64,000 nucleotides of DNA from Candidatus Aminicenantes bacterium (GCA_963717865.1 CAVQXL010000004.1:1064243-1128242); one strand, 5' to 3'. Shown: positions 1 to 60,598, counted from the stretch's first letter. The notes: generated by a model from the sequence alone, not told the origin. Numbers and translations: made by a program.

Positions 1-1981
1 GCTGCATCTCTTCAGCCCGACCATGTACAACGAGGTCCGCATCGGGTACCACCGCGATTACGCGGACTGGCCGCGCCTCGCGCCTGAGGTTCCGTCGATC
101 GGCGGCTACTCCTTTGCCGACGGCGTAACGGTCATCGGCGACTACCCGAACATGCCCCAGAAGTTCGCCAACAACACCTATCAGTTGGTGGACGTCCTGA
201 ACTTCCAGGTCGGCAACCACAGCATCAAGGTCGGCGGCGAAGCCAGGCTCTGGAACTCGGATTCGATGTTCGACGCCAACGTCGCGGGGAGCTACTATTT
301 CGTCGATTCGACGTGGTTCCTCTATGACCTCGGCGCCTATTACCTGGTCATCGGGGCCGACCCGCCCGACCCGCCCGAGGGCAATCCCTACGTCACGGGC
401 GCCGCCCAGGAAGAATGGAAACAGGGCGATTCCCGCAGGAAATGGAAAGGGTTCGAAGGCGGCCTGTTCGTCCAGGACGACTGGCGCGTGACGGACAAGC
501 TGACCGTTTCCCTCGGCCTGAGATGGGAATACTACGGAGTCCCCAAGGAAACGTCCGGAAAGGGCATCAACATGCCCGCCTTCGGGACCAAGGCAGGCTT
601 CGAATCGAAGCAGATCATCGAGGGGACGTTCGGCGAGGAAGGGATCAAGTACCTCATCTTCGACGGCCGCCAGAAGCTCGGCAAGGGGCTCTGGAATCCC
701 TATTACAAGGCGTTCGCTCCCAAGGTCAGCTTCGCTTACGACCTGACCGGCGACGGCAAGACGTCGCTGCGGGCCGGTGCCGGCATCTCCTATGACCGCA
801 CCTTCAACAACACGTACGAGAACGACCGGTTCAACTACCCCGACTTTACGTTCGCCTCGATCGCGAGCTGGGATATTCTGTATGGGTATGATGTAGGAAG
901 CCCCCCGATCAAGGTCACCTATCCCGGGACCGTCCCACAGGCGAACATCACCGGCTACAGGGCCGCCCTGCGGTGGATGCTCCCCGACCTTCAGCCTCAG
1001 AAGGCCTATAATTGGCTGGTCGGGGTCCAGAGAGAGCTCTCGACGAACGTCTCCATCGAGCTCAATTACACGGGCTCCAAGGGCGCAAACCTGGGCTCCA
1101 TCCAGCGGCCGAACCGCTTCACCGGGGACGGGGTCGACCGCCGTCCGGACGGGATCAACGCCTACACCGCCATCCGGGACCTCAACCTTCGCACGCAGAA
1201 CCTGAAATCCGATTACCACGCGTTCACCGCCACGATCAACAAGAGGTTCGCGAACGGCTGGTCCTGGTATACGGCTTATACTTATGGCATCGCCAAGGAC
1301 CAGAACTCCGACTACTTCGGTGAAGGCGATACCGGGAGCGGCACGGTCATGGAAGCCGTCTCCAACGAGCGGATCTCCGACGAGTACGGCTACGCCCAGT
1401 TCGACCGGCGGCATCGGGTCGTCGGCGGCATGATCTACGACATCCCCTTCTTCAAGAACTCCAAGAACTGGTTCCTGAAGAACGTCGTCGCCGGCTGGCA
1501 GATCTCCAGCAACTTCCACTTCACGTCCGGCGCTCCGTTCTCGATCCGGGCCGCTTCCTCGAGCCAGGATTGGAACAAGGACTACGATTACAACGACAGG
1601 CCGCTGTGGCTCGGCGGCAGCAACTACCAGGAGATCATCAACTGGACGAACGGCAAGCCCGGTTGGGACAAGAGCTCCTTTGCCGTCCCGACGCCTCCGT
1701 CGGGCGCCAACGACCTCAGCTACTACGATCAGACCTTCGCCCCGCGGAACGCGTTCAAGTGGTTCCCGACCCACAACATCAACATCTCTCTGCAGAAGTA
1801 CTGGACCGTCCCCATGGCCGGGAGGGAATTCACGGTTCAGGCGATCGTCGAGGTCTTCAACGTCCTCAAGTCCTACTTCTGGAATCTCCCCAACACGAGC
1901 TGGACCGATACGCGATTCGGCATATCGCAGCGGATGAGCGGCCAGAGGACGTCCCAGGTATCGCTCCGGATCATGTTCTAA
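1..1981 (+). CDS. TonB-dependent-receptor-like outer-membrane beta-barrel, C-terminal part (5' partial)
   Basis: The frame is open from the window edge, with no stop before the first ATG at 23. Barrel-type motifs are present (FDRRHRVVGGMIYDIPFF, GWQISSNFHFTSGAPFSI). The protein ends in a C-terminal Phe (SLRIMF), as in OM barrels. A strong terminator follows. Confidence 0.75.
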   Translation, partial: LHLFSPTMYNEVRIGYHRDYADWPRLAPEVPSIGGYSFADGVTVIGDYPNMPQKFANNTYQLVDVLNFQVGNHSIKVGGEARLWNSDSMFDANVAGSYYFVDSTWFLYDLGAYYLVIGADPPDPPEGNPYVTGAAQEEWKQGDSRRKWKGFEGGLFVQDDWRVTDKLTVSLGLRWEYYGVPKETSGKGINMPAFGTKAGFESKQIIEGTFGEEGIKYLIFDGRQKLGKGLWNPYYKAFAPKVSFAYDLTGDGKTSLRAGAGISYDRTFNNTYENDRFNYPDFTFASIASWDILYGYDVGSPPIKVTYPGTVPQANITGYRAALRWMLPDLQPQKAYNWLVGVQRELSTNVSIELNYTGSKGANLGSIQRPNRFTGDGVDRRPDGINAYTAIRDLNLRTQNLKSDYHAFTATINKRFANGWSWYTAYTYGIAKDQNSDYFGEGDTGSGTVMEAVSNERISDEYGYAQFDRRHRVVGGMIYDIPFFKNSKNWFLKNVVAGWQISSNFHFTSGAPFSIRAASSSQDWNKDYDYNDRPLWLGGSNYQEIINWTNGKPGWDKSSFAVPTPPSGANDLSYYDQTFAPRNAFKWFPTHNINISLQKYWTVPMAGREFTVQAIVEVFNVLKSYFWNLPNTSWTDTRFGISQRMSGQRTSQVSLRIMF

Positions 1982-2012
1982 GGTTCAAGTACTCGAGCAC
2001 ACGCACACGCTC

Positions 2013-2052
2013 AAAGCCCTGCCCCGGTTCGCCGGGGCAGGGCTTTTCTTTT
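2013..2052 (+). terminator. Rho-independent terminator
   Basis: Perfect inverted repeat aaagccctgccccgg / ccggggcagggcttt around a ttcg loop, running into a ttttctttt tract. It lies 30 nt after the stop of the barrel gene. Confidence 0.85.
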
Positions 2053-2094
2053 GGGCCGATTGATGCCGCGCATACATTCTGGTATATTTTTCGA

Positions 2095-4224
2095 ATGGCG
2101 CCCATGATCAGGATCGTCGGATTCGTCCTGCTCCTGCTCTTCCCGGGCCTGGACCTCTATGCCTTATCCGGCGCCGGGGCCAAGGTCGCCAGGGAGGGGA
2201 ACCTCAACGTCCTCCTCATCACCCTGGATACGATGAGAGCCGATCGCCTGGGCGCCTACGGGTGGGGCAAGGCCAGGACCCCGAACATCGACGCCCTGGC
2301 CGCGGGGGGCGTGAGGTTCGCCCATGCCTATTGCCCGGCGCCCCTGACCCTTCCTTCCCATTGTTCCATCCTGACGGGGACCTATCCTCTTTACCATAAG
2401 GTCCGTAACAACGGTTCCTACTACCTGGGCCCGGAGGCTGTGACCCTGGCCGAGAGGCTCCGGGATCGGGGCTTTGCGACGTCGGCTTTCGTCGCCTCGT
2501 TCAACGTCGATTCGCGGTTCGGGGTGGACCAGGGGTTCACGATATACGATGACCGCTCCGACGATGAGCAGATGCTGAAGACGTTCCGGTCCGAGCGCCG
2601 CGGCGACAAGGTCGCGGACGCGTTCATCAGCTGGCTGGAAGCCAACTCCGGGAGCCGGTTCCTTTCCTGGGTCCACTTCTACGATCCCCACATGCCCCAC
2701 GACCCGCCTTCGCCGTACAAAGAGGAGTTCGCCGCCGACCTTTACGACGGCGAGGTCGCGTTCATGGACCATGAGCTGGGTCGGGTCATCGACGCCCTGA
2801 GGGCCAAGGGCGTCCTGGACAGGACGCTCATCGTCATCGCCGGCGACCACGGCGAGGCGCTCGGCGAGAAGGAAGAGCTCGATCACGGCATCTTCCTCTA
2901 CGACGGAACGATGAAGGTCCCGCTGATCTTCTACGCGGACAAGCGTCTGCCCGGGGGCCTGGTCGTCGATTCGCGGGTCAGGCTCATCGACATCATGCCC
3001 TCGGTGCTGGATATGCTCGGGATCCCGGTGAATCGGGAGGTCCAGGGAACGAGCCTCCTGCCCTTCATCGAAGGCCGGGAGGAGGGAGACCTGCCCTGCT
3101 ACATCGAGACCTACTATCCTCCGGAGACCTTCGGCTGGGCGGAGCTTCGGGGCCTCGTCGACGGGGACTGGAAATTCATCCGGGCGCCGCGTTCGGAGCT
3201 TTACGACCTGAAGAAGGACCCCCGGGAAGAGAAGGACCTCGTCGGGCGCGAGGCCGGGACCGCCGCCCGTCTCAACAGGAAGCTCGACGACATCATCAAA
3301 ACCTATACGTCGAAGACGGAGCCCGGCCGGAGGACGCTCACGGGCGAAGAGGAAGCCCGCCTGCGGTCGCTGGGCTATATCGGGGCCGACGCCTCGGTCA
3401 AGGTCGGCAAGGGGCCCCTGCCGGACCCCAAGGACAAGATGGGGGAATTCAAGACCCTCTTCAAGGCGAAGCTCCTGGAATATCAGGGCAACTTCGAGGA
3501 GTCCGAAAAATATTATCGGGAGATCCTCCGGCTGGAGCCGGACGTCTCCTGGCATTACATCGGGCTGGCCATCCTTCTGGCGAAGGAGCGGAAGGTCGGC
3601 GACGGCATCGAGGTCCTTAAGAGCGGGCTCGCGCGGCTTCCGGATTCGGTCGTCCTCATGTCGCGGCTGGCCAGCTTCTACATGAGGGCCGGGAATTTCA
3701 AGGAGGCCTTCGCGATGAGCCAGGCTACCCTGAAACGGGACCCCAAGCATTTCGACGCGCTGGTCATCGCCGGGTGGTCCGAGGATATGCGCGGCCGCTG
3801 GAAGGAATCGGCGGGATATTTCGGAAAGGCCCTGAAGATCGAGCCGGAGAACAAGTACACCCGCCTGAAATACGCCTACGCCCTCGGGGCGCTCGGCCGG
3901 GGGGAGGAAGCGGCCCGGATGGACGAGGCTCTCAAGAAGGATCATCCCGGGGATTATCGGGTCCACGCCGACCTCGGGGTCATTTACGCCTCGATGAACA
4001 AGCTGGACCTGGCCGAGGAGAACCTCCGGAAGGCCGTCGAGCTGAAGCCCGGGCCCGACGCCTATCTGGCGTACTCGGCGATCCTCGAGCGCATGGGAAG
4101 GCTCGAGGACGCCGTCGCCAACCTGAAGCTGTTCCTCGAGACCGCGAAGGAAGGGGACACTCCCAGGACGCGGAAAGCCCGCGCGGCGCTTGCGGAATGG
4201 GAACGGAGGATCAGGGAGCGATGA
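2095..4224 (+). CDS. Alkaline-phosphatase-superfamily (sulfatase-like) hydrolase fused to C-terminal TPR repeats, paralogue 1
   Basis: The ATG at 2095 starts a signal/anchor peptide (MAPMIRIVGFVLLLLFPGL). Sulfatase-fold motifs are LLITLDTMRADRLG, TLPSHCSILTGTYP and IAGDHGE. The C-terminal ~250 aa are TPR-like. The stop overlaps the next start (ATGA at 4221-4224). Confidence 0.85.
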   Translation: MAPMIRIVGFVLLLLFPGLDLYALSGAGAKVAREGNLNVLLITLDTMRADRLGAYGWGKARTPNIDALAAGGVRFAHAYCPAPLTLPSHCSILTGTYPLYHKVRNNGSYYLGPEAVTLAERLRDRGFATSAFVASFNVDSRFGVDQGFTIYDDRSDDEQMLKTFRSERRGDKVADAFISWLEANSGSRFLSWVHFYDPHMPHDPPSPYKEEFAADLYDGEVAFMDHELGRVIDALRAKGVLDRTLIVIAGDHGEALGEKEELDHGIFLYDGTMKVPLIFYADKRLPGGLVVDSRVRLIDIMPSVLDMLGIPVNREVQGTSLLPFIEGREEGDLPCYIETYYPPETFGWAELRGLVDGDWKFIRAPRSELYDLKKDPREEKDLVGREAGTAARLNRKLDDIIKTYTSKTEPGRRTLTGEEEARLRSLGYIGADASVKVGKGPLPDPKDKMGEFKTLFKAKLLEYQGNFEESEKYYREILRLEPDVSWHYIGLAILLAKERKVGDGIEVLKSGLARLPDSVVLMSRLASFYMRAGNFKEAFAMSQATLKRDPKHFDALVIAGWSEDMRGRWKESAGYFGKALKIEPENKYTRLKYAYALGALGRGEEAARMDEALKKDHPGDYRVHADLGVIYASMNKLDLAEENLRKAVELKPGPDAYLAYSAILERMGRLEDAVANLKLFLETAKEGDTPRTRKARAALAEWERRIRER

Positions 4225-6341
4225 GGAACGCGGCGATCGCCCTCGCCATTCTCTTATCCGCCCCGGGCGTCGCCTCCCCGTCCGCGTCCGCGGACACCGT
4301 GACCAGGGACGGCCGGCTGAACGTCCTCCTCGTGACCCTGGATACGACGCGGGCGGACCACGTCGGCTGCTACGGGTACGCGAAGGCCGAAACGCCGGTC
4401 CTCGACTCCCTGGCCCGGAACGGCGTCCGATTCGTCAACGCCTATTGCCCGACGCCGCTGACCCTCCCTTCCCACTGCTCGATCCTTACGGGGACCTATC
4501 CTCTCCGCCACAAGGTCCGGAACAACGGCAGCTATTACCTGGCCGACGAGGCGGTGACGCTTGCCGAAAGGCTCAAGCAGAACGGATACCTGACGTCGGC
4601 GTTCGTCGCCTCCTTCAACACCGATTCGAGATTCGGGCTCGGACAGGGCTTTGACGTCTACGACGACCGGTTCGGCGGGGACGAGATGCTGAAGACGTTC
4701 CGTTCCGAAAGGCCGGCCGACAAGGTTGCGGACGCGTTCCTCTCCTGGCTGGACTCGGCGAATCCCCGGGCCCGGCTCTTTTCCTGGGTCCATTTCTTCG
4801 ATCCGCACGCCCCCTATGAGCCCCCGCCGCCGTATAGGGAGAAGTTCGCGGATGCCCCCTATGACGGCGAGATCGCTTTCATGGACCACGAGCTGGGGCG
4901 GATCATCGACGCCCTGCGGGCGAAGGGCATCCTGGACCGGACGCTCGTCGTCGTCGCCGGAGATCACGGCGAATCCCTGGGGGAACACGGGGAGAGCAAC
5001 CACGGCATCTTCATCTATGACTCCGCGATGAAGGTCCCGCTCGTCCTCTCCGCTCCGGGGAACCTCCCCAGGGGACTGGTCGTGAGCTCGAAGGTCAGGC
5101 TCATCGACCTCATGCCCACCGTCCTCGACGCGCTCGAGATGCCCGTGAACTCCGAGGTCCAGGGAGAGAGCCTCCTGCCGTTCGTCGAGGGAAAAAAGAA
5201 GGAGGGCCTGGCCTGCTATCTCGAAAGCTTCTATCCCACGGAGACCTTCGGCTGGTCGGAGCTCGTGGGGCTCGTCGAAGGGGACCGGAAGTTCATCCGG
5301 GCCCCGCGTTCGGAGCTCTACGACCTGACGAACGATCCTCGAGAGGAGAAGGACCTGGCGTCGCGGGAAGCCCGGACGGCCTCGCTCCTCAACAGGAGGC
5401 TCGACGAGGTCATCCGCGCCCACGTCTCGAACGCGGAACCGGGCCGCCGGACCCTGACGGGGGACGAAGAGGACCGTCTGCGCTCCCTGGGCTACGTCGG
5501 GGCGGGCGCCGCGCCGGCGGTCGGAAAGGGGCCCCGCCCGGACCCCAAGGACAGGATCGGGGAGAGCACGATCCTCTCGCGGGCGAAGCTTCTCGAATCC
5601 GAGGAAAAGTACGGGGAAGCCGAGAAATGTTACCGCGAGCTTCTCGGCCTGAGACCCGACGTCCCCTGGCACTATATCGGCCTGGGCGCGCTCCTTGTCA
5701 AGGCGCAGAGGGTCGCCGAGGGGATCGATGTCCTGAAGGAGGGGCTGGGTCGAATGCCGGATTCGGCGATCCTTCACGCGAGGCTGGCGAGTTTCTACAT
5801 GAAGATCGGACGCTTCCCCGAGGCCTTCGAATCGAGCCGGAACGCCCTGAAGCTGGACCCCCGGAATTTCGACGCGATGGTCATCGCGGGCTGGTCCGAG
5901 GACATGCGCGCCAACTGGACGGAAGCCGCCGGCTTCTACCGCAAGGCCCTGGATATCGAGCCGGAGAACAAGACGGTCCGGATGAAATACGCCTATGTTC
6001 TGGGGGCCATGGGGCGCGGCGACGAGGCCGCCCGGATGGATGAGGCCCTCAAGAAGGAATATCCCGAGGATCCCAAGATCTACACCGACCTTTCGGTCAT
6101 CTATACGGCCCAGGGCAAGCTTGACCAGGCCGAGGGGAATCTCAGGAAGGCCGTCGCGTTGAATCCCTCGGCCGAGAACCATCACCGGCTGGGGACGCTC
6201 CTCGGGCGGATGGGAAAGCTCGAGGACGCCGTCGCCCAGATGAAGCTTTTCCTCAGGAAGACCGGCGAGGGCGAGACCCCCAGGAAGGCCAAGGCCCGCG
6301 AGTCGGTCGCGGAATGGGAAAGACGGATCAAGGGGCAATGA
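4221..6341 (+). CDS. Alkaline-phosphatase-superfamily (sulfatase-like) hydrolase-TPR fusion, paralogue 2
   Basis: MRNAAIALAILLSAPG signal peptide. It is collinear with paralogue 1 along its whole length (LLVTLDTTRADHVG, TLPSHCSILTGTYP, VAGDHGE, TPR tail ending AEWERRIKGQ). ATGA overlaps occur at both ends. Confidence 0.85.
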   Translation: MRNAAIALAILLSAPGVASPSASADTVTRDGRLNVLLVTLDTTRADHVGCYGYAKAETPVLDSLARNGVRFVNAYCPTPLTLPSHCSILTGTYPLRHKVRNNGSYYLADEAVTLAERLKQNGYLTSAFVASFNTDSRFGLGQGFDVYDDRFGGDEMLKTFRSERPADKVADAFLSWLDSANPRARLFSWVHFFDPHAPYEPPPPYREKFADAPYDGEIAFMDHELGRIIDALRAKGILDRTLVVVAGDHGESLGEHGESNHGIFIYDSAMKVPLVLSAPGNLPRGLVVSSKVRLIDLMPTVLDALEMPVNSEVQGESLLPFVEGKKKEGLACYLESFYPTETFGWSELVGLVEGDRKFIRAPRSELYDLTNDPREEKDLASREARTASLLNRRLDEVIRAHVSNAEPGRRTLTGDEEDRLRSLGYVGAGAAPAVGKGPRPDPKDRIGESTILSRAKLLESEEKYGEAEKCYRELLGLRPDVPWHYIGLGALLVKAQRVAEGIDVLKEGLGRMPDSAILHARLASFYMKIGRFPEAFESSRNALKLDPRNFDAMVIAGWSEDMRANWTEAAGFYRKALDIEPENKTVRMKYAYVLGAMGRGDEAARMDEALKKEYPEDPKIYTDLSVIYTAQGKLDQAEGNLRKAVALNPSAENHHRLGTLLGRMGKLEDAVAQMKLFLRKTGEGETPRKAKARESVAEWERRIKGQ

Positions 6342-8462
6342 GAATCCCGGCCGTCCTCCTCATCCTGTTCCTTTCCGCGGGGCCCGGGCGCCCTCTTTTC
6401 TCAGCGACCGACGTCAAAAGGGACGCCGGACTCAACGTCCTTCTCGTGACGCTCGACACGACACGGGCGGACCGTATCGGCGCCTATGGGTACACCAAGG
6501 CCAGGACGCCCGCGCTCGACTCCCTTGCCGCCGGAGGCGTCCGGTTCGTGAACGCTTACTGCCCGGTTCCGATGACCCTCCCATCGCACTGTTCCATCCT
6601 CACGGGGACCGGCCCGCTCTATCACAAGGTCCACAATAACGGGACCTATTACCTCAACAAGGATATCGTCACCCTGACCGAGAGGCTCAAGGAGAAGGGT
6701 TACAGGACGGCGGCGTTCGTCAGCTCGTTCAACGTGGACTCCCGTTTCGGCGTCGCGAAGGGGTTCGACGTCTTCGACGACCGGTTCCACGACGACGAGA
6801 TGATAAAGACGTTCCGGTCGGAGCGGCGGGGAGGGGAGACCACGGCCGCCTTCCTCCGCTGGCTGGACGAACCGGGGCAAGGCCCGTTCTTCTCGTGGAT
6901 CCACTACTACGATCCCCATACGCCCTACCACCCCCCGTCGCCGTTCCGGGAGGAATTCGCCTCCGACCCGTACGACGGCGAGATCGCCTACATGGACTCC
7001 TGCTTCGGGAAGGTCCTGGCGCGGCTCCGGGAAAAGGGCCTCCTCGAGCGGACGCTCATCGTGGTCGCCGGGGACCACGGCGAGGCGTTCGGGGAGAAGG
7101 GGGAGCTGGGCCACGGCGTTTTCATCTATGACGTGACGATGAAGGTCCCGCTCATATTCCACGCCCCCGGGAATCTCCCCAAGGGCCAGGTCGTGGCTTC
7201 GCGGGTCAGGCTCATCGATGTCATGCCGACCGTCCTCGACGCGCTGAAGATGTCCATCAACAAGCCGGTCCAGGGGACGAGCCTCCTGCCCTACATGGAG
7301 GGCCGCAAGAAGGAGGACCTGCCGTGTTACCTGGAAAGCTACTATCCGCTCGAGACCTACGGATGGTCCGAGCTCGTCGGTCTCATCGACGAAGGATGGA
7401 AGTTCATCCGGGCGCCCCGGTCCGAGCTCTATGACATCAAGACCGACCCCGGAGAGACCCGGGACCTCGTGGGGAGGCAGGCGGGAAAGGCGTCGGCGAT
7501 GATGCGAAAGCTCAAGGACACGATCGCCGCGGATTCTTCCGGCCTCGCCCTGAGCCGGAGGAAACTCAGCCGGGAAGAAGAGGAGCGGCTGAGGTCGCTG
7601 GGCTATGTGGGGAACGACGCTTCGGTCCGCGTCGGGAGCGGGCCTCTGCCCGACCCTAAGGACCGGATGCCCGAGTTCCATATCCTCTACCGGGCCAAGA
7701 CGAACGAATGGGATGGAAAATGGGATGACGCGGAGAAGGATTATCGGGAGATCCTCCGCCTCCAGCCCGACGTCGCCTGGCGCTACGTGGACCTGGCGAT
7801 CTTCCTGACGATCCGCGACAGGCTTCCCGAGGCCATCGCGGTCCTCAGAGCAGGGGCTGACCCGGATGCCGGATTCCTTCGTCCTCCTCACGCGGCTCGC
7901 CCATTTAGAAATGGGGGCGGGCCATTACGACGAGGCCGGTGAGATGAGCCGGGCGGCCCTCCGGATCGATCCCGGGCATTTCGATTCCCTGGTCATCGCC
8001 GGCGGCGTCGAGGACGTCCGGGAGAACTGGGAGGAATCGGTATCCCTCTACCGGAAGGCCCTGGAGGTCGAACCCGAGAACAAGAAGATCCGGATGAAGT
8101 ACGCTTTTGCGCTGGGAGCCCTGGGCCGGGGAGACGAGGCCGCGAAGATCGACGAGGCGCTGAAGGCGGAATTCCCGGACGATACCCGGCTCCGCCAGGA
8201 CCTGGGCGTCATTTATGCCGGCCTGGGCCGGTGGAACCTGGCCGAAGAGAACCTGAGGAAGGCCGTCGAGCTGCAGCCGTCGCCGGAGACCTGGTTCAAT
8301 CTCGCCTCCGTCCTCGAGCAGTCGGGGAAGCTCGCCGAGGCCGTCCGCTATCTCCAGCTCTATATCGAAAAGACCACGGAAGGCGAGACGCCCCGCAAGG
8401 CGAACGCCCGGAAAGCCCTGGCCGATTGGCAGCGGCGCCTGAAAACGCCGCCGGGGCCATGA
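6338..8462 (+). pseudogene. Alkaline-phosphatase-superfamily hydrolase-TPR fusion, paralogue 3, split by one frame change near 7857
   Basis: ORF 6338-7942 carries the catalytic domain. ORF 7866-8462 carries the TPR tail (MPDSFVLLTRLAHLEM... aligns with RMPDSAILHARLASFYM of paralogue 2). Removing one g from the gggg run at ~7853-7857 restores LRAGLTRMPDSF. Span length is 3n+1. Confidence 0.8.
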
Positions 8463-9931
8463 AGAAAATAAAGATCACCATGGAGGCGAATATGAAAAGG
8501 ATCATCGTATTGACGACCCTTCTTGCCGTCGCGCTCGCGGGCCTGGTCCCGTCTGCCGCGGCCGCGAAGAAGGAACAGGACAAGTATGAGAAATGGATCA
8601 AGGAGGAGGTCGCGCTCCTCGTCCTCCCGGAGGAAAAGGCCGAGTTCGAAAAGCTCAAGACGAACGAGGACAAGGACCGGTTCATCGAGCTGTTCTGGGC
8701 CAAAAGGGACCCCTCGCCCGGCTCCAAGAACAACGAGTTCCGGGACGAGTGGCTGGCGAGGCTCGAATATGTCAATAAGACCTATGCCTCGGGCTTGGGG
8801 CCCAAAGGCTGGCGCTCGGACATGGGCAAGGTCTATCTCTTTTTCGGGCCCCCGGTCCAGGTCCAGGGAGGGGCGACCGGGGTGAGACCCGAGTCCGCGG
8901 GTGGAACCCAAATGGAGGCCCCGTCGGAGACGTGGCTCTATCAGCCGATGCCGGACCTCAGCCTGACCGACGCGTTCTCGGTCGTTTTCCGGAACTTTCA
9001 GTTCGGATACGAGATCGACCAGTCGACGCCGCAAAAGGTCCGGCGGGCCATGGAGGTCTTTCCCAAGATCGTCGTCTTCAACCCCGACCTCAAAGAGCTC
9101 CCGATGTACAAGTACGTCCTGGACGAGACCTCCCTCGAGGGGAAGATGATCCAGGATTTCATCGCGACCGGGAACGAGGTCAAGGGCCTTTCGCTCGAGT
9201 GGGCGCCCATTTACACCCGGGCCATGGGCGGCAGTACCTACGTTTCTCTGCTCGTCCAGATCGATCCGGGGACGATCGACCGGAAGAAGCTCAAGGAAAC
9301 GACCTTCTTCGGCCGGCTCAAGGGCGAAGGCGATGAGGTCCAGGACTTCTTGACGACGGTCCGGGTCGAAAAGGAGAAGGCCGACAAGCTGGTCGTGGTC
9401 TTCGGCTTCCCGGCCAAGCCCGGCAAATCGGTGCTCTACCTCGGGGCGGAAGACGCGGACAAGCAGAACCCGACCCTGATCAAGGCCGACCTGGACGTCA
9501 AGGATTTCTGGAAGGGCGAGCTCGACACGAGCTCCCTCATCCTCAGCTCCGAGGTCGTCTCCAGGCCCAAGGACGAGGCGCCCGGGGCATTCAGCCCCTA
9601 CGTCACGAGCGATTACAGGGCCACGCCGCGCTGGGGAAGCGTCTTCCGGGCGAACGAGGACCTGAGCGTTCTCTTCCATATCTACAACGCCGGGACGAAC
9701 AACGGCGAGGTCGATCTGACCGTCGATTACTTCATCATTTCGGCCGAAGTGGGCTACAGGCTGAACCCTCAGACGATCCGGGTGAGGGTGGAGGAGAACC
9801 AGACCGTTGCCGGGGGGACGCAGGTCCCTCTCTCGCCGCTCAAGCCCGGGAAATACACGTTCAAGCTGAAGGTCACGGACAAGGTCGCCAACAAGGCGAT
9901 CGAGCGGACCGCGGAGTTCGCGGTCGAATAG
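8459..9931 (+). CDS. GWxTD-domain protein (secreted)
   Basis: The ATG at 8459 overlaps the preceding stop (ATGA); an alternative start is at 8492. Signal peptide is MKRIIVLTTLLAVALAGLVPSAAA. The motif GWRSDMGKVYLFFGPP matches the GWxTD family signature as I remember it. Confidence 0.7.
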   Translation: MKKIKITMEANMKRIIVLTTLLAVALAGLVPSAAAAKKEQDKYEKWIKEEVALLVLPEEKAEFEKLKTNEDKDRFIELFWAKRDPSPGSKNNEFRDEWLARLEYVNKTYASGLGPKGWRSDMGKVYLFFGPPVQVQGGATGVRPESAGGTQMEAPSETWLYQPMPDLSLTDAFSVVFRNFQFGYEIDQSTPQKVRRAMEVFPKIVVFNPDLKELPMYKYVLDETSLEGKMIQDFIATGNEVKGLSLEWAPIYTRAMGGSTYVSLLVQIDPGTIDRKKLKETTFFGRLKGEGDEVQDFLTTVRVEKEKADKLVVVFGFPAKPGKSVLYLGAEDADKQNPTLIKADLDVKDFWKGELDTSSLILSSEVVSRPKDEAPGAFSPYVTSDYRATPRWGSVFRANEDLSVLFHIYNAGTNNGEVDLTVDYFIISAEVGYRLNPQTIRVRVEENQTVAGGTQVPLSPLKPGKYTFKLKVTDKVANKAIERTAEFAVE

Positions 9932-9934
9932 GGG

Positions 9935-10548
9935 GTGACTGTGAGACAAAAACTTTCGGTATCGATCCTTCTCGGCCTGGCGGTGCTGGCGTCGGGCTGC
10001 GCCACCGCCGGCCCGAAGGGGAAGCCCGGCGAGGCGTCCAAGTCGGCCACGTTCAACTACTCCTGGCAGGACAAGAATCTGGCGATCATCCTGGATGTCG
10101 AACTGGCCCGGAGGCGGACCGAAGAGCCCTTTTTCCCGCTGGGCATCAAGATCGCCAACAAGCGGCTCAACAGGATCATCGTCGACCGGGAGACGCTCTT
10201 CCTGGTCAACGAAGCGGGCACCGTTTACCCGATGCCTTCGGTCGAGGAGCTTTCCCTCCAGTACGATAAGCTGACGCCCGACAACAAGTTCATCAGCCAG
10301 ACGGGCGTATTGGGGGACCAGATCATGACCGGGTTCTCCTACTACCGCAAGGCCGTGGGCCGCCTCTTCCCTCAGACCCAGGGAGGGGGCGGACCGTCGA
10401 TGCCATCTACGTCCAAACGAACGGCTATATGGAGGACCTTGTCTATTTCCCGATGCCCGAGGGCGGTATCAAGGGGAAGACCCTCAGGCTCAGGCTGGAC
10501 GTCTATGAGCTCGGAAAGCCGCTCGATATCGCGTTTCGCGTCGATTAG
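9935..10548 (+). pseudogene. Lipoprotein of unknown function, one frame change near 10385
   Basis: GTG start with a lipobox (LAVLASGC). After the gggaggggg run (~10380-10390) a coherent continuation lies in the -1 frame (RTVDAIYVQTNGYMEDLVYFPMPEGGIKGKTLRLRLDVYELGKPLDIAFRVD, stop 10546-10548). Span length is 3n+2. Confidence 0.55.
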
Positions 10549-10549
10549 G

Positions 10550-11434
10550 GTGCCGGCCGTCCTCGTCCGGGTCCTCGCCGCCGCCGGCGCCGCCGTCCTG
10601 GTCCTCGGGGCCTCGGCGCCGCCGGCCGGGCAGGACCAGGCGACGGACCCGGCGGCCTGGAGCCGGGAGGAGAAGGAGGATTTCCTCCGGACGGCGGACA
10701 TCGTCCGCAGCGAGGTCATCCCGGGAGGGACGACGCGTTCGTCGCGGGCCACCCTGCGGAACGCGCGGGGGACGCACGATGCCCACATCCAGTCGATCGA
10801 CATCGCCGCGGCCAAGTTCGAGGGGGTCGCGGGGCAATGGGAGCTCAACTTCCGGGATACCTATAAATTCAACCTGGCCGCCTATGCCATGGACCGCCTC
10901 CTGGGGATGGACATGATCCCGCCGACGGTCGAACGGAAGGTCGGCAAGCGCACGGCCGCGGTGACGTGGTGGGTCGATGACGTGCTCATGGACGAGAAGG
11001 ACCGGCTCCTGAAGAAGGAGTTGCCGCCGATCCCGAAACGGTACAGGTGGAACTACCAGATCCACATCGTCCGCGTCTTCGACCAGCTCATCGCCAACAA
11101 GGACCGGAACCTCGGGAACATCCTGATCACCCGCGGCTGGAACATCTGGATCATCGATCACACGCGTGCCTTCCGCCCCTGGAAGGACCTCCTCGCCGCG
11201 GACGACCTCGCCCGGTGCGATCGCGCCCTTCTCGAGGGAATGCGCCGGCTGGACAGGAAGACGCTCGTGGAACGACTCGGAGCCTACCTCACGAACATGG
11301 AGATCGATGGGCTCCTGGCCCGCCGGGACCGCATCGTCAAGTTCTTCGACGACAAAGCCGCCCGCGACGGGGAGAACGTGGTCCTGTTCGATTACCTCGT
11401 CGAGCGCCGGACGGGGCCGCCGGGCGCGGACTGA
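10550..11434 (+). CDS. Signal-peptide protein with PI3/PI4-kinase-like catalytic motifs
   Basis: The GTG at 10550 comes directly after the lipoprotein stop. N-terminus is hydrophobic (VPAVLVRVLAAAGAAVLVLGASA). The motif DQLIANKDRNLGNILI...IWIIDHTRAF resembles the DRxxxN catalytic loop and the IDN/DFG-type metal loop of type II PI4-kinase-like folds. Confidence 0.6.
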   Translation: MPAVLVRVLAAAGAAVLVLGASAPPAGQDQATDPAAWSREEKEDFLRTADIVRSEVIPGGTTRSSRATLRNARGTHDAHIQSIDIAAAKFEGVAGQWELNFRDTYKFNLAAYAMDRLLGMDMIPPTVERKVGKRTAAVTWWVDDVLMDEKDRLLKKELPPIPKRYRWNYQIHIVRVFDQLIANKDRNLGNILITRGWNIWIIDHTRAFRPWKDLLAADDLARCDRALLEGMRRLDRKTLVERLGAYLTNMEIDGLLARRDRIVKFFDDKAARDGENVVLFDYLVERRTGPPGAD

Positions 11435-11437
11435 TCC

Positions 11438-11752
11438 TCAGCGCCCGCGGGGCAGGAACCGAAGCCCATAACGCGTGCTGGTCCGGGCGGGCGCGCACCA
11501 GACGACCTGGGCCCGGACGGGCAGGCTGACGGACGGCTCCGGACCGGGGATCAGGACCCTGACGACGTCCTTCTCGCGAAGGGGGAGCTGGGTGATCATC
11601 CCGATCCCTCCCGGGCTGATGTCCACGGCCTGGGCGAGGAAATGAACGCCCATGGGACTCCCGGCCCCCTCCTCGAGCGGCCCTTTATCGAAGTAAACGG
11701 GGCGGGCGTGGACCCAGCGCCGATAGGTCCGGTTTTCCAGACGGCCTTCCAT
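11438..11752 (-). CDS. PilZ-domain protein
   Basis: 104 aa with RxxxR (RTYRRWVHAR) and D/NxSxxG (DISPGGIG) c-di-GMP-binding motifs. Confidence 0.7.
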   Translation of the reverse strand: MEGRLENRTYRRWVHARPVYFDKGPLEEGAGSPMGVHFLAQAVDISPGGIGMITQLPLREKDVVRVLIPGPEPSVSLPVRAQVVWCAPARTSTRYGLRFLPRGR

Positions 11753-11771
11753 GTTCGCCCCCTTGCCGTTG

Positions 11772-12071
11772 TCAGGCCAGGAAACGGAGTCCGGACCGGA
11801 ACCTGGCCCCTTCGGGCTTCGACCAGACGATCGCCGCGGCGACGGGGAGGTTCACGGTCAGGTCCGCCATCGGGAACAGCAGGCGAACGGCCTCGTCCGG
11901 GATGAGAGGCTGGGGGGTGATCAGGCCGATGCCGCTCTGGCTGATATCGGTCCCATGGGCCATCAGCGAGGAATAGCCCGGCTTTTCCGGCGACGCGAAA
12001 AGGCGCTCGATATAGACGGCCTTCAGGTGAGGCCGGCGCGCATGGACCCTTTTGTCTTCATAGTGCTCCAT
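11772..12071 (-). CDS. PilZ-domain protein
   Basis: Start taken at MEHYEDKRVHARRP (ATG 12069-12071). Motifs are RVHARRP and DISQSGIG. The longer upstream extension in the track is low-complexity. Confidence 0.7.
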   Translation of the reverse strand: MEHYEDKRVHARRPHLKAVYIERLFASPEKPGYSSLMAHGTDISQSGIGLITPQPLIPDEAVRLLFPMADLTVNLPVAAAIVWSKPEGARFRSGLRFLA

Positions 12072-12294
12072 CACCCTTCTCCTTTGCCCTCTTAATATAT
12101 AGGTCCGCGCTCCCCGCCTGTCAACCGGTCCTATGCGAACGGCCCGGGGCGCCGTCTCACCCCCCTCACCCCTGGAGGGGAGGGGACGGCTCGGAAAATC
12201 ACCCCCGGAATTCATCCCCCGAAGCGATTCCCCCCTGGGCGCGGGTATAGGATTATCCAATCCTCGATGCTCAGGACCGACTAAATTGATAACG

Positions 12295-14145
12295 ATGCAA
12301 AAGCCTGGAAACAGAGCGAAGCAGGACCCTACCGCTTCGGCCGCGCGTCCCGGGAGCGCCCACCCGGCAGCCTCGGAGATCGATAAGCTGCGCCGCCGGG
12401 CGCTCCTGGCCGAGCGTGAGGCCTTTTCCGCCAAGGCCAGGCTGGAGCACCTATTAAGCGCGAGCTCGGGCGTCATCCTGAGCTGCCGCGCTTCGGCCGA
12501 TCACGGCGCCACCTTCGTCAGCCGGAGCCTGAAGACCCTCCTCGGCTACGAGCCCAAAGAATTCCTCAAGGAGCCCAAAGCCTGGCTCGAGGCCGTCCAC
12601 CCGGACGACCGCGAGGAGGTCGAAGCCATGCTCGCCTACGTGAGCGAGGTCGGGAACCTCGTCCACGAGTTCCGGATGCGGCACCGGGACGGGGGCTACA
12701 GATGGCTCCGCAACGAGCTCCGCCTCGCCGCCCCCCGGGGACGGCGGAAGTCCGGCGAGATCGCCGCCTATTGGATGGATATCACCGAATCCAAGACCCT
12801 CGAGGAACAGTTCGTTCACGACGCCTTTCACGATACCCTGACCAACCTCCCGAACCGGGCCCTCTTCGAGGACCGCCTCCGCGTTTCCTTCGCCCGGGGC
12901 CGCCGTCGGAAGGGCGCCACGTTCGCGGTCCTCTACGTCGACCTCGACCGCTTCAAGAACGTCAACGAGAGCCTGGGGCACGCCAAGGGCGACCGGCTCC
13001 TCCTGGGCGCCTCGAGAAGGCTCTTGAAGTGCGTGCGCTTCGGGGACACCGTCGCCCGCCTCGGCGGCGACGAGTTCCTCATCATCCTCGAGGACATCAA
13101 GGACCTGGCCGACGTCGAATCGACGGCCGAACGGATCCAGACGGAGATCGGACGGCCTTATGACCTCGGAGGGGAGGCGGAGGCGTTCGCCTCGGTCAGC
13201 ATCGGGATCGCCATCGCCTATCCGGGCCTCGAGAGGCCCGAGCATCTGGTCCGGGACGCCGAGACCGCGATGTTCCGGGCGAAGGCGTCCGGACGGGCCT
13301 GCCACGTCGTCTTCGACGGCGCCATGCGCGACAAGGCGGTGACGGCCCTTCAGCTGGAAACGGACCTCCGGCGGGCGGTCGAGAGGAACGAGTTCGTCCT
13401 CTATTACCAGCCGATCTGCCGGCTGAAGGACGGGACCGTGGCCGGATTCGAAGCCCTCATCCGCTGGCGTCATCCGAGCCGCGGCCTGATCCTCCCGAAC
13501 CACTTCATCCCCCAGGCCGAGGAGACGGGGCTGATCGTTCCGATGGGGGAATGGGTGCTCCGGGAGGCCTGCCGGCAGATGCGGGCCTGGCAGGACGCCT
13601 TTCCGGAGACCCCGCCGCTCGGCATCAGCGTCAACCTGTCCAGCAAACAGATCCTGCCGGGGTTCGCGGACCGCGTCCGCGACGTCCTCGCCGAAACTCG
13701 GATCGAACCATCGTCCCTGAGGCTCGAGATCACCGAAAGCTCGATCATCGACGACCCGGACCTGGCGGCCGGGCTCTTCGCCGAGCTCCGGAACATGAAG
13801 GTCCGCGTCCTCATCGACGACTTCGGGACGGGCTATTCGTCGATGAACTACCTCAGCAAGCTTTCGATCGACGGCCTCAAGATCGACCGGAGCTTCATCG
13901 GGGCCATGAGCCCGACGGGGGAGGGGCTGGAGATCGTCCGGATGATCCTGGCCCTCGCCCGGAACCTGGGCCTCAACGTCGTGGCCGAGGGCGTGGAGAC
14001 GGTCGAACAGATGGAATTCCTGAGGTGGCTGAACGGCGAATTCGCCCAGGGGTTCTTCTTCTCGGAGCCGTTGGACGCCTCGGCGGCGGAGAGGTACCTG
14101 GCTGCCAGGGCGGACGGGGGGCGTGCCCCCATGCCCGGGGCCTGA
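12295..14145 (+). CDS. PAS-GGDEF-EAL c-di-GMP turnover protein
   Basis: Start taken at MQKPGNRAK (12295). PAS-like region (GYRWLRNE, AYWMDITESK), intact GGDEF (RLGGDEFLIIL), and EAL motifs (EALIRW, DDFGTGYSS, QGFFFSEP). Confidence 0.85.
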   Translation: MQKPGNRAKQDPTASAARPGSAHPAASEIDKLRRRALLAEREAFSAKARLEHLLSASSGVILSCRASADHGATFVSRSLKTLLGYEPKEFLKEPKAWLEAVHPDDREEVEAMLAYVSEVGNLVHEFRMRHRDGGYRWLRNELRLAAPRGRRKSGEIAAYWMDITESKTLEEQFVHDAFHDTLTNLPNRALFEDRLRVSFARGRRRKGATFAVLYVDLDRFKNVNESLGHAKGDRLLLGASRRLLKCVRFGDTVARLGGDEFLIILEDIKDLADVESTAERIQTEIGRPYDLGGEAEAFASVSIGIAIAYPGLERPEHLVRDAETAMFRAKASGRACHVVFDGAMRDKAVTALQLETDLRRAVERNEFVLYYQPICRLKDGTVAGFEALIRWRHPSRGLILPNHFIPQAEETGLIVPMGEWVLREACRQMRAWQDAFPETPPLGISVNLSSKQILPGFADRVRDVLAETRIEPSSLRLEITESSIIDDPDLAAGLFAELRNMKVRVLIDDFGTGYSSMNYLSKLSIDGLKIDRSFIGAMSPTGEGLEIVRMILALARNLGLNVVAEGVETVEQMEFLRWLNGEFAQGFFFSEPLDASAAERYLAARADGGRAPMPGA

Positions 14146-14217
14146 CGTCCCCGCGTCCGGCTTGCCAAACACGGTCCCTCGCCCTATAATCTGCCTCTTT
14201 GCGCAAGGAGTGGACCC

Positions 14218-16301
14218 ATGAGCAAGCGCTCGACCGTTCTTCTCGTCCTGGCCGGACTCCTCGGCTCGGCCTTCGCGGCGGCCCAGGACCGCCTGAAGAC
14301 CATGCCGGGCTACGCCCGATACGAAAAGATGAGCCGGGAGATCCCGTCGGCCGCCAAGCTCGGCGCCCTGATCGTGACGTGGAGTGCGGACGGCAGGACG
14401 TTCGAATACCGGAAGGACGGCAAGCTCTATCGGTACGACGTCGCGGCCCGCAAGGCCGTCGAGGCCGGGGTCGCCCCGGCCGAACCCACACGCCCGGGCC
14501 GTCCCGGGGCCGGACCCGTCCGCGGGAGGCAGTGGGACAGCGCCGTCTCGCCGGACAAGAAGCTCAAGGCCTTTTATCGAGACCGGAATCTCTGGCTGAG
14601 CGATGCCGACGGGAGAAACGAGGTTGCCGTCACGACGGACGGCTCCGAAAAGACCCGCGTCAAGAACGGGACGGCCAGCTGGGTCTACGGAGAAGAGCTG
14701 GATCAGACCACGGCGATCTGGTGGTCGCCGGACTCGTCCAAGATCGCGTTCTACCGGTTCGACGAGAGCCGCGTCCCCGATTACTTCCTCCAGATGGACC
14801 AGACGAAGCTCTACAGCAAGCCCGATATCGAGGCCTATCCCAAGGCGGGTGAGCCGAATCCCGTCGTCGAGGTCCTCATCTATGACGTCGCGTCGAAGAC
14901 GACCGTCCGGGCGGACGTCAGGGACGGGAAGCCGTTCGATGATGCCGTCGTCGGCCACTACGTGTACAACGTCCAATGGTCGCCCGACGGTTCGCTCCTT
15001 CTGTTCAACCGCACGAACCGGCGTCAGAACGTTCTCGAGCTCGCCGCCTGCGACCCGGAGACGGGAAGATGCCGGGTCGATCGTCCGGGACGAATGGCCG
15101 ACGGGCTGGGTCGAGAACAACCCCGAGATGCGGTTCCTCAACGACGGCAAGAGGTTCATCTGCGCTCTCGGAGCGGAACGGCTGGAGGAATTATTATCTC
15201 TACGACCTGAACGGCACGCTCCTCAAGACGCTGACGAACCACGCCTTCGAGGTCGCCGGCATCGTCCGCGTCGACGAAAAAGCGGGCCTGCTCTATTACC
15301 TGGCCCGCAGCGGTGACAATCCCATGAAGCTCCAGCTCCACCGGGTCGGGCTGGACGGGAAGAAGGACAGGCGTCTGACCGATCCCGCCTTCCACCATAC
15401 GATCGACCATGGCCCCGAACGGGAAGATATTTCGTCGACGTCGCCCAGACCCACGACGTCCCCCCCGTGACCCGGCTCATGGACGCGTCGGGCAAGGCCG
15501 TCGCCGAGCTGGCCGCGAGCGACCTGACGAAATTCGATGCGCTTGGGGATGAAGAAAGCCGAGCTCTTCACGTTCAAGGCCGCCGACGGTGTGACGGACC
15601 TCTATGGGATGCTCAGCTTCCCGTCGAACTTCGATCCGACCAGGAAATACCCGCTTCTCGTCAGCGTCTATGCCGGTCCCGGGACCAACGGGGCGCGCGA
15701 GACGTTCATGACCCCAGACCCGATGGCGGAGTACGGTTTCCTCGTCGCCTCCTTCGATTCGCGGAGCGCGGGCGGGCGCGGCCGGAAGGCCCTCGACGCC
15801 GTTTACATGCATCTGGGCGTCGTCGAGATCGACGACCAGGCGGCGGGCGTCAAGGCTCTTTGGGAGCGCCCCTACGTCGACAAGGCCCGTGTCGGCATCT
15901 TCGGGACCTCGTATGGCGGCTACGCCTCGGCGATGTGCCTGCTCCGCCACCCCGACGTCTTTCGGGCGGCCAGCGCCTCGTCCCCGGTTACGGCCTGGAA
16001 CCACTACGACAGCATCTACACCGAGCGCTACATGTGGATCCCTCAGGAGAACAAGGAAGGGTACGAGGCGGGAAGCGCCATGACCTACGCCGGCAAGCTC
16101 GACGGCCGGCTGATGATCTACTACGGGACGGCGGACAACAACGTCCACCCGAACAACTCCATGCAGCTCATCCAGGCCCTGCAGCGGGCCGGCAAGAGCT
16201 TCGAGGTCCAGGTCGGGCCCGACGCCGGGCATTCCGGCCTCCGCCAGGACCGGATGATGGAATTCTTCATCGAGAACCTGGTGATGAACGCTCCCCGCTG
16301 A
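14218..16301 (+). pseudogene. Dipeptidyl-peptidase IV family (S9B) serine peptidase, at least 4 frame changes
   Basis: AAGGAG SD and signal peptide (MSKRSTVLLVLAGLLGSAFAAA). Homologous pieces are spread over frames: ...ACDPETG / IVRDEWPTGWVENNPEMRFLNDGKRFI / SERNGWRNYYLYDLNG...HHTID / VTRLMDASGKAVAEL / MKKAELFTFKA...GTSYGGY...GHSG. Frame switches lie near 15075, 15160, 15410 and 15540. Confidence 0.8.
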
Positions 16302-43523: not shown

Positions 43524-43958
43524 CTACAGCGCGTGCCCCGTACCGCGGTGGCACGAGGTGCACCTGAGGCTTTTCCGGTCATGGTTCCTCAAGATCGGAT
43601 CCACCATCGCGGCATGACAGGCCACGCAGTTCTCCTGAAGGTTGCGCAGATCGCCCGGCGTGATCCGGAGATGTTGGACGTTCTCGAAGGTGAAGGCCCA
43701 GGAATGGCGGAATCCGTTCTCTCCCTTGGCCATGTATTTCCGGAGGAAGTCGTGCGGGATGTGACAGTCGTTGCACGGGACCGAGCGGTGGCTGGAGACG
43801 CGCCAGCTTTCATAATTGTCCCGCATGATGTGGCAATTGACGCAGGCCTCGGGTTTGTTGGAGAGATAGGAAAAGCCCCGGGCGTACCAGAACGTGTAGG
43901 CGCCCGCTCCGGCGGCGATCCCGAGTCCCAGGGCGATCGCGGCGAGGGGAGCCTTCAG
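43524..43958 (-). CDS. nrfH: Tetraheme NrfH-type cytochrome c quinol dehydrogenase subunit
   Basis: Four CxxCH motifs (CVNCH, CNDCH, CVACH, CTSCH), preceded by the TM helix LKAPLAAIALGLGIAAGAGAY. The frame opens only 4 codons upstream. There is no ATG/GTG/TTG before heme 1. The likely start is the CTG at 43956-43958, overlapping the nrfA stop. Confidence 0.7.
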   Translation of the reverse strand: MKAPLAAIALGLGIAAGAGAYTFWYARGFSYLSNKPEACVNCHIMRDNYESWRVSSHRSVPCNDCHIPHDFLRKYMAKGENGFRHSWAFTFENVQHLRITPGDLRNLQENCVACHAAMVDPILRNHDRKSLRCTSCHRGTGHAL

Positions 43959-60375: not shown

Positions 60376-60598
60376 ATTATCAGCTTGGCAAGCCCAAGTA
60401 AAGGAAGTAAAATGCCGGAAGGTCGCGCTGTGGACGCCATAAAGGTCGAAGCGCTGACGAAGGTCTTTGACGGGTTCACAGCCGGTAACGCGGTCACCTT
60501 TTGGCCGTCTGCTCGGCTATCGCCGCAACCATGGTGGCCCTGGGAGCGTATTTCTTCGAGAAGAGCGAAACCGTATGATACGGCCCAAGGAGGCATCA

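Follow-up and report, generated by a model that had tools for sequence, protein, structure and literature searches.

A conserved Aminicenantes gene cluster joining a TonB-dependent-transporter-like barrel, sulfatase-fold TPR enzymes, a GWxTD protein and a lipoprotein

Introduction

What do several genes for exported proteins, packed onto one strand with almost no space between them, accomplish together, if they act together at all? We ask this question of a locus at positions 1-11434, on the plus strand, of a 64,000-nt stretch of DNA (hereafter, the window) from a Candidatus Aminicenantes bacterium (Acidobacteriota). In sediments, soils and digesters Aminicenantes abound without having been cultured, and to our knowledge the means by which they acquire their substrates are largely unknown.

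The locus begins with a gene for an outer-membrane barrel of the TonB-dependent-transporter type, followed by six genes that we call g1 to g6. Genes g1, g2 and g3 encode a sulfatase-fold domain of the alkaline phosphatase superfamily joined to tetratricopeptide repeats (TPR), g4 a GWxTD-domain protein, g5 a small lipoprotein, and g6 a protein resembling the PI3/PI4 kinases. A preliminary description of the window took the six genes to be one functional unit, acting on a phosphorylated substrate in the envelope or outside the cell. We find that the barrel, the sulfatase-TPR enzymes, the GWxTD protein and the lipoprotein constitute a real, conserved and uncharacterised cluster of Aminicenantes, composed mostly of orphan families, and we propose, tentatively, a function for it.

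Results

Genes that stay together

The barrel, sulfatase-TPR, GWxTD and lipoprotein genes are clustered across Aminicenantes down to 34-50% protein identity, with one to three copies of the sulfatase-TPR gene (three in the window). The genes g4 and g5 are adjacent in every locus having both, and a barrel gene lies nearby in the related loci that we designate L081/82, L085, L087, L088 and L090. Orthologues of g4 form about 70 clusters, compared with 68 for the g5 family, and many members of the two lie on contigs of matching size.

The content and order of the cluster vary among these loci. In L081/L082, where g5 is 59% identical to that of the window, the order is a GWxTD gene (586 aa), a full-length barrel, two sulfatase-TPR genes, a GWxTD gene and the lipoprotein. 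In L085 (g5 50% identical) there is a GWxTD gene, the barrel, a single sulfatase-TPR gene, a gene for an acidobact_VWFA protein (TIGR03436), a GWxTD gene and the lipoprotein. In L088 and L087, whose g4 is 50% and 46% and whose g5 is 38% and 34% identical, the barrel is followed by two amidohydrolases, a CarboxypepD_reg-TPR protein, a GWxTD protein (560 aa), the g4 orthologue and the lipoprotein; the one sulfatase-TPR gene of L088 lies upstream of the barrel. The repeats of the CarboxypepD_reg-TPR protein are only generically similar to those of g1 (30% over 120 aa). Persistence through rearrangement, change of copy number and replacement of enzymes is better evidence of a functional linkage than gene order shared among close relatives.

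A comparison anchored on g6 gives a different result for the kinase-like gene. Taking one genome per species among 185,579 species genomes, we obtained 80 loci with flanks of 10 kb. The barrel, three sulfatase-TPR genes, GWxTD and lipoprotein accompany g6 in the same order in only four of them, all Aminicenantes-like metagenome-assembled genomes (MAGs) in which g6 is at least 72% identical. The remaining 76 loci (Bryobacterales, Vicinamibacterales, Terriglobia and others; 44-58% identity) hold none of the cluster genes, and a hidden Markov model of the GWxTD domain finds no hits in these non-Aminicenantes loci. The flanking reading frames of the g6 loci cluster instead into calcineurin-like phosphoesterases (19), MFS/TLC-HEAT transporters (16), FHA-GAF-HisKA proteins (15) and Ser/Thr kinase-PD40 proteins (14). 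Conversely, the cluster occurs without a kinase-like gene in L081, L087 and L088.

The preliminary description had singled out the sulfatase-TPR, GWxTD and kinase-like genes as a trio. Since g6 has these neighbours in just the four loci, all of them close relatives, we reject the trio as a unit. The broader idea of one functional unit holds for the barrel, sulfatase-TPR, GWxTD and lipoprotein genes, whereas g6 and the downstream genes of cyclic di-GMP (c-di-GMP) signalling keep company with them only in close relatives. We propose that g6 is a late, lineage-specific addition to the cluster.

The sulfatase-fold enzymes

The genes g1 (2095..4224), g2 (4221..6341) and g3 (6338..8462), all on the plus strand, are three tandem paralogues, as first described: their products are 59-65% identical to one another (g2 to g1, 64-65%), and each carries a Sulfatase domain (PF00884; 144-155 bits against a cutoff of 25, E 1e-42 to 1e-45) followed by about 250 aa of TPR. 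Among solved structures, the best matches are to S1 sulfatases and phosphonate monoester hydrolases (6pt6, 7stt, 4upk; E 1e-25 to 1e-30).

The active site, however, departs from that of a sulfatase. Formylglycine sulfatases depend on a C/S-x-P-x-R motif that is indispensable to them, and in alignments to solved sulfatases the position of the Cys or Ser that is the formylglycine precursor is occupied in g1-g3 by Thr (LTLPSHCSILTG, compared with SSPSRAAMFTG and ASPTRASIMTG). The motif thus reads T-L-P-S-H, its Arg replaced by His, and in the same alignments the metal pair DD has become DT. HMMER alignments show the sulfate-binding GKWH replaced by ASFN (against 7stt) and DKG, with the Lys that follows the GDxG motif, by DHG (against 6pt6). 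The motif T-L-P-S/T-H is present in all three copies of the window and in all 14 copies examined from relatives, including a Saccharicenans protein of 42-44% identity. Because of the Thr at the formylglycine position and the replaced sulfate-binding residues, g1-g3 would fall outside the functional formylglycine sulfatase class; judging by their sequences, they cannot be matured to formylglycine.

Which chemistry do the altered residues suggest? D45, T85, D251 and H252, located through the alignment to solved sulfatases, are invariant in seven diverse sequences. In NPP-type phosphodiesterases and in phosphoethanolamine transferases, Asp, Thr and Asp-His together make up the metal site on the nucleophile side, and the chemistry of g1-g3 is most likely phosphoryl transfer. 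The three proteins have a single N-terminal hydrophobic segment, with the catalytic domain starting at about residue 35, and a check for a multi-span membrane domain found none. The known transferases have a membrane domain that these proteins lack, and so hydrolysis is the simpler guess. That the locus acts on a phosphorylated substrate, as initially suggested, is thus plausible in view of the T-L-P-S-H motif and the replaced sulfate-binding residues, although the substrate itself is only a matter of inference.

Automated annotation would label g1-g3 as sulfatases. If they are phosphoesterases, counts of 'sulfatases' in Acidobacteriota MAGs overstate the use of sulfated glycans and understate the scavenging of organic phosphorus. 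A literature search on Thr-nucleophile sulfatase-like enzymes returned no relevant paper, and the abstracts of the five papers returned on Aminicenantes and sulfatases make no mention of the cluster.

The GWxTD protein and the lipoprotein

The product of g4 (8492..9931, plus strand) is an exported protein whose GWxTD assignment is borne out by TIGR04514 (86.3 bits, cutoff 28) and PF20094 (35.7, cutoff 26.9). Its AlphaFold2 model, with a mean predicted local distance difference test score (pLDDT) of 84, shows a GWxTD domain at the N-terminus, helical but for a small sheet, and after it beta-sandwich domains in tandem. In a Foldseek search with the full model only the sandwiches find matches (RbmA, arrestin/Vps26, transglutaminase C-domains), at low TM-scores, and a profile search of solved structures likewise matches only a C-terminal PKD/Ig-like stretch.

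Conservation in the GWxTD domain falls on Trp, Arg, Asp, Asn, Gly and Pro and on no Cys or His, which argues for binding rather than catalysis. The domain therefore appears to be a binding module, and this is supported by two fusions, one to TPR and one to a BlaR1-like M56 sensor. The first occurs in Candidatus Saccharicenans (L092, 10001-19079), where a paralogous GWxTD-TPR fusion is found with a CarboxypepD_reg-TPR protein, a sulfatase-TPR protein (TLPSHTTILTG) and a convergent CarboxypepD_reg barrel gene. The second occurs in a Bryobacteraceae locus (L094, 9609-11518), where GWxTD makes up the C-terminal, extracytoplasmic region of a Peptidase_M56 membrane protein resembling BlaR1, whose gene overlaps one for a BlaI/Penicillinase_R repressor; GWxTD is there the sensor module of a signalling pair. 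Literature searches on GWxTD, PF20094 and TIGR04514 returned no relevant paper.

The lipoprotein gene g5 (9935..10548, plus strand) encodes 202-204 aa with the lipobox LASGC, in agreement with its first description. It belongs to no Pfam or NCBIfam family, and the profile search of solved structures was empty. Its own family conserves the motifs DVELARRR..E.YFPLGIKIANK, FPQTQGG.R and YMEDLIYFPMP.GGI.GK. For the GWxTD domain, for this family-less lipoprotein and for a sulfatase-fold subfamily without formylglycine chemistry, the cluster provides a first genomic context and testable partners.

A possible function

The remaining component is the barrel gene (2..1981, plus strand), which the window cuts at its start so that the C-terminal 660 or so aa remain. 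As the preliminary description had it, the product resembles the barrel of a TonB-dependent receptor (PF25183, E 8.8e-92, 309 bits; PF00593, E 4e-9, 37 bits). The orthologues in L081, L087, L088 and L090 are full length and have CarboxypepD_reg, Plug and barrel domains. The locus must reach past the start of the window, where the barrel gene is interrupted; moreover, a second GWxTD gene lies upstream of the barrel in relatives.

The explanation that we put first, while holding it to be somewhat short of an even chance, is that the cluster resembles a utilisation locus, in which a substrate is captured, dephosphorylated and imported. The CarboxypepD_reg-Plug-barrel transporter would be the import channel for the substrate or its products, and one or two GWxTD proteins together with the small lipoprotein would be non-catalytic partners for binding or docking. 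The exported enzymes would be an interchangeable cargo, for which amidohydrolases or a VWFA protein could substitute elsewhere. Here the cargo would be g1-g3, whose rebuilt active site (Thr nucleophile, Asp and Asp-His ligands) would most likely cleave phosphoester rather than sulfate ester bonds in a polymeric or surface-bound substrate. Their TPR halves might tether them to the other components, and the released products would be taken up through the barrel.

Several observations weigh against this proposal. No SusD-like protein and no dedicated regulator is found in the window, and TPR-fused enzymes are atypical of known utilisation loci. In L083 the lipoprotein gene is divergent to a sulfatase-TPR gene, with neither GWxTD nor barrel. 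In L091 (10001-12310) a g4 orthologue of 65% identity is fused to an N-terminal alpha/beta-hydrolase and lies downstream of the genes for a MacB-type ABC exporter, three of them for membrane-fusion proteins; neither g5 nor a barrel is present. In the enzymes, H194, D197, H199 and H264 are also invariant, and as ligands of a second metal they are candidates only. The N-terminal GWxTD domain has no structural match by Foldseek or by the profile search of solved structures, so the role given to it above is a guess. The function as a whole is read from genomic context and sequence, and the context comparison spans about 90 related loci, with the cluster confined to one uncultured class, Aminicenantes, represented largely by MAGs.

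Alternative explanations

The alternative that survives best, unlikely as we judge it, is remodelling of the envelope or matrix under c-di-GMP control. On this account the Thr-type enzymes add or trim phospho-substituents on lipopolysaccharide, exopolysaccharide or a surface protein, much as BcsG, EptA, LtaS or OpgB do, while the TPR docks to an outer-membrane complex and the GWxTD protein serves as matrix or scaffold. Thr and Ser nucleophiles are typical of envelope-modifying members of the alkaline phosphatase superfamily, and g1-g3 have weak NCBIfam matches to EptA, MCR and YejM; the scores for phosphoethanolamine or phosphoglycerol transferases, however, are 20-36 bits against cutoffs of about 500-1250, and it is hydrolases that the catalytic domain most resembles in sequence. 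Moreover, the known transferases use multi-span membrane domains to reach lipid donors, and g1-g3 have only a signal-like segment. The TPR region speaks for remodelling to the extent that its best NCBIfam matches are proteins of secretion or assembly (PrsT, PilW, GltE, Tgl, PgaA, BcsC). So does the fact that the best Foldseek match of g4 is the Vibrio biofilm scaffold RbmA, but its TM-score is low, at 0.19 for the query, and what the match captures is generic beta-sandwiches in tandem. Nor does any polysaccharide synthase or glycosyltransferase appear among the large open reading frames (ORFs) of the window that were scanned.

The c-di-GMP genes themselves lie directly after the locus, as the preliminary description noted: two PilZ-domain genes on the minus strand (11438..11752, convergent with g6, PF07238 E 6.8e-12; and 11772..12074, PF07238 E 1.1e-8), and on the plus strand a PAS-GGDEF-EAL gene for c-di-GMP turnover (12133..14145), whose true start is probably downstream of 12133, since an orthologue aligns from 12286. 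This module is real, and its adjacency here and in close relatives favours remodelling (the first PilZ gene is conserved in L001, L003, L004 and L090). But the more distant versions of the cluster (L081/82, L085, L087, L088) lack both the PilZ and the GGDEF-EAL genes. Two unrelated PilZ genes also follow the sulfatase-TPR gene of L083; these are small, lie directly 3' of that gene (6768-9836, minus strand), and show no detectable similarity to the pair of the window beyond the domain, and hence no detectable orthology. A scan of positions 1-14500 with Rfam, riboswitches of the c-di-GMP type included, found nothing real.

One MAG (MFD00905.bin.2.121) holds two copies of the entire locus, PilZ pair and GGDEF-EAL gene included, on contigs 2 and 11 (L003 and L004), with g6 at 72-75% identity to that of the window. 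The locus may be truly duplicated, or the bin may mix two strains.

We also consider, as an improbable explanation, that the genes have no single function, and that tight spacing on a shared strand is the inherited synteny of unrelated exported proteins within a narrow lineage. The full seven-gene synteny is indeed limited to the four close relatives, the kinase-like family has many different neighbours elsewhere, and some GWxTD homologues lie in unrelated contexts. The core genes, however, are still clustered at 34-60% identity after the rearrangements and replacements described above, a paralogous set recurs independently in Saccharicenans, and the overlapping or nearly abutting coding regions are conserved. 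Among the homologues elsewhere, L089 (9153-11641) and L093 (9349-11779) carry another GWxTD subfamily, 546-592 aa long and 24-25% identical to g4; its genes are divergent to a gene of the phosphoribosyltransferase family, on unrelated contigs, with no barrel or sulfatase-TPR gene nearby.

The kinase-like protein

The gene g6 (11434 at its 3' end, plus strand) starts at either 10505 or 10550, the latter giving coordinates 10550..11434. The motifs of PI3/PI4 kinases claimed for its product fall below threshold in Pfam (PF00454, 17.6 bits, cutoff 27.1), yet structure prediction supports the fold. The AlphaFold2 model (pLDDT 90.5; predicted TM-score 0.85) finds as its best Foldseek matches PI4K-II beta/alpha, Vps34 and PI3K delta (E about 1e-6, probability 1.00, TMq 0.45-0.50), and from this predicted model we are confident of a PI4K-II/PI3K-like fold. 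A profile of the family also matches the solved structures of FAM20A/C through short alpha-C-like and catalytic-loop motifs (FAM20A, E 9e-5). With the Fam20C family PF06702 there is no match for g6 itself, while a relative, P0276, scores 29.4 compared with 26.8 and the L085 paralogue reaches E 0.0018. Against the SCO1664 family (TIGR03843), g6 scores 42.1 bits, below the equivalog cutoff of 172.4. D185 and N190 of the catalytic loop (DRNxGN) and D203 of the DFG-like IDHxRAF are invariant in 90 sequences. The strands of the N-lobe have no invariant Lys, and although K106 is nearly invariant, the ATP-binding Lys cannot be assigned.

The family is large. An exhaustive profile search gave 4,398 representatives (of clusters at 50% identity) at E <= 1e-3, and 998 at E <= 1e-30; its members are predicted to be exported, belong to Acidobacteriota, and often occur in several copies per genome. 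Thirteen of the top 150 are longer than 600 aa. Among the nine of these examined, six begin with a PPP-type metallophosphoesterase that has a signal peptide of its own, two are fusions to a Hanks-type kinase, and one is a tandem duplication. Mirroring the fusions, a gene for such an exported PPP-type phosphoesterase adjoins the kinase-like gene in 19 of the 80 genome loci. The family may thus form an extracytoplasmic kinase/phosphatase pair with the phosphoesterase. This is a lead, separate from the cluster, to the phosphorylation of proteins or glycans outside the bacterial cytoplasm.

Could such a pair explain the locus of the window? A cycle in which g6 adds phosphate to a substrate that is at the surface, in the periplasm or captured, and g1-g3 undo the modification, by analogy with the kinase-like/PPP-phosphatase fusions, would draw on the predicted fold, the invariant residues, the predicted export and the phosphoesterase pairings just given, and on a distant relative of g6 (32% identical) two genes downstream of the cluster in L085, but we consider it very improbable, because most versions of the cluster lack g6, because g6 has no identifiable ATP-binding Lys and scores below the Pfam and NCBIfam cutoffs, because its pairing with alkaline-phosphatase-type enzymes occurs in one narrow clade only, and because ATP is not expected in the periplasm. 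A generalised form of the idea is a similarly long shot: that Acidobacteriota practise extracytoplasmic phosphorylation by means of exported PI4K-II/FAM20-like kinases, every one of which has as its partner an exported phosphoesterase, mostly of the PPP type and here of the Thr-type sulfatase fold, and that the window couples this cycle to the machine of GWxTD protein, lipoprotein and TonB-dependent transporter.

Signals, starts and frame breaks

The preliminary description placed a strong terminator behind the barrel gene, and in the 12.6 kb scanned no other terminator-like site comes near in strength to the hairpin at 2013..2046 (plus strand; 15 pairs, 11 of them GC, with a T-rich tail behind them). 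The same scan found a sole sigma70-like promoter match, at 2060..2088 on the plus strand (TTGATG-17-TATATT with TG), which is a match to the consensus only. A relative at 87% (L090) has the same hairpin and promoter-like site, while one at about 60% (L081) has a different hairpin. The -10 element ends 7 nt upstream of the ATG of g1, with no Shine-Dalgarno sequence between, and this arrangement is kept in L090. Since the -10 element ends so close to an ATG without a Shine-Dalgarno sequence, g1 may be translated from a leaderless or nearly leaderless mRNA.

The coupling of the genes was first described in terms of ATGA overlaps at 4221, 6338 and 8459 and of very short junctions at 9931/9935 and 10548/10550. 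All three ATGA sequences are present, joining g1 to g2 and g2 to g3, but the third is probably not functional, because g4 probably starts at ATG 8492 rather than at the upstream ATG 8459: a GGAGG lies 6 nt upstream of 8492, most orthologues are 477-481 aa long, and the closest relative has a 29-nt gap. The two short junctions are as described, except that in the window the lipoprotein ORF, which may start at GTG 9941, reads past 10548. By inspection of the sequences, each of the products of g1-g6 begins with a basic and then a hydrophobic segment, so that the claim of export signals throughout the locus stands as a prediction.

The six same-strand genes are likewise present in content, but two of them are not intact in the window. 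Gene g3 consists of two ORFs in different frames (6314..7942 and 7866..8462), and alignment with three relatives reveals one extra A at about 7849, outside any repeat tract; the gene is intact in L001, L002 and L004. In g5, alignment with four relatives reveals a deletion of 1 nt beside a run of five G at about 10386-10390, and because of this missing base 9935..11434 reads as one fused ORF of 499 aa containing both g5 and g6. When repaired, g5 regains the family-invariant FPQTQGGxR motif and is 100% identical to an intact protein, P0121, of another assembly. Farther along, at 14218-16300, a homologue of a 1163-aa gene for a DPPIV/S9-peptidase-beta-lactamase protein (intact in L090) has frame changes near 15079 and 15165 and has lost its last 470 or so residues. 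At least four frame breaks (in g3, g5 and the peptidase homologue) therefore lie within 16 kb, which suggests an error-prone assembly, and related assemblies are broken elsewhere (L003 at many sites, L090 in the barrel gene). Errors of assembly probably account for the breaks in g3 and g5, given the identical intact protein elsewhere, the broken peptidase gene and the relatives broken at other sites.

We also weighed programmed frameshifting or phase variation at g3 and g5, and reject it: the former has a lone inserted A and the latter a missing base beside five G, the relatives are intact, and the same intact protein, broken peptidase and differently broken sister assemblies count against it.

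Apart from the locus, the window contains genes of ordinary function, for example a histidine kinase, an S46 peptidase, a GH97 protein, an amidohydrolase and an NrfA-type cytochrome. The NrfA-type cytochrome c552 (PF02335, E 3e-134) and the GH97 protein, at 43955-45283 (minus strand) and 60467-62575, are metabolic and unrelated to the cluster. No extra copies of the cluster genes were found in the 64 kb, and a look-up of the exact g1 sequence found no identical entry on record.

Comparison with known systems

The predicted fold of g6 places it with PI4K-II, PI3K and the FAM20 kinases, with which it shares an alpha-C-like motif (AAY.LDR.L....IP.TV), a catalytic loop (FDQLI.N.DRN.GN) and a DFG-like motif (IDH.RAF); like FAM20, it is also predicted to be made with a signal peptide. 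It differs from all of these in its length of about 260 aa, without the accessory domains of lipid kinases, in its scores below the Pfam cutoffs and its lack of an identified ATP-binding Lys, and in being bacterial and exported, with no known phosphate donor.

The enzymes g1-g3 stand between two groups. What they have in common with S1 sulfatases and phosphonate monoester hydrolases is the fold, together with the first metal-binding Asp and the Asp within GDxG; g1-g3 differ from the S1 sulfatases in the five substitutions described above (Cys/Ser to Thr, Arg to His, GKWH to ASFN, DKG to DHG, DD to DT) and in the fused TPR. With NPP, PafA, EptA/MCR, LtaS and BcsG they share the Thr nucleophile, the Asp and Asp-His metal site and a predicted extracytoplasmic location, whereas the sequence similarity is much weaker than that to sulfatases, and g1-g3 lack a membrane domain.

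The cluster as a whole may be compared with the SusC-type utilisation loci of Bacteroidota. It is not a member of that type, because it has no SusD and its partners are different: SusD/RagB is unmatched by any product of the window or gene of the related loci, and beside the transporter are encoded GWxTD proteins and a family-less lipoprotein of 203 aa. The enzymes have TPR halves, no hybrid two-component or ECF/anti-sigma regulator is encoded in the window, and the host belongs to Acidobacteriota. By analogy, nevertheless, the closest working likeness of the cluster is a SusC-centred utilisation locus: in both, a transporter with CarboxypepD_reg, Plug and barrel domains (as in the orthologues of the window's barrel) is encoded beside a lipoprotein and exported accessory proteins, and the exported hydrolases vary from locus to locus.

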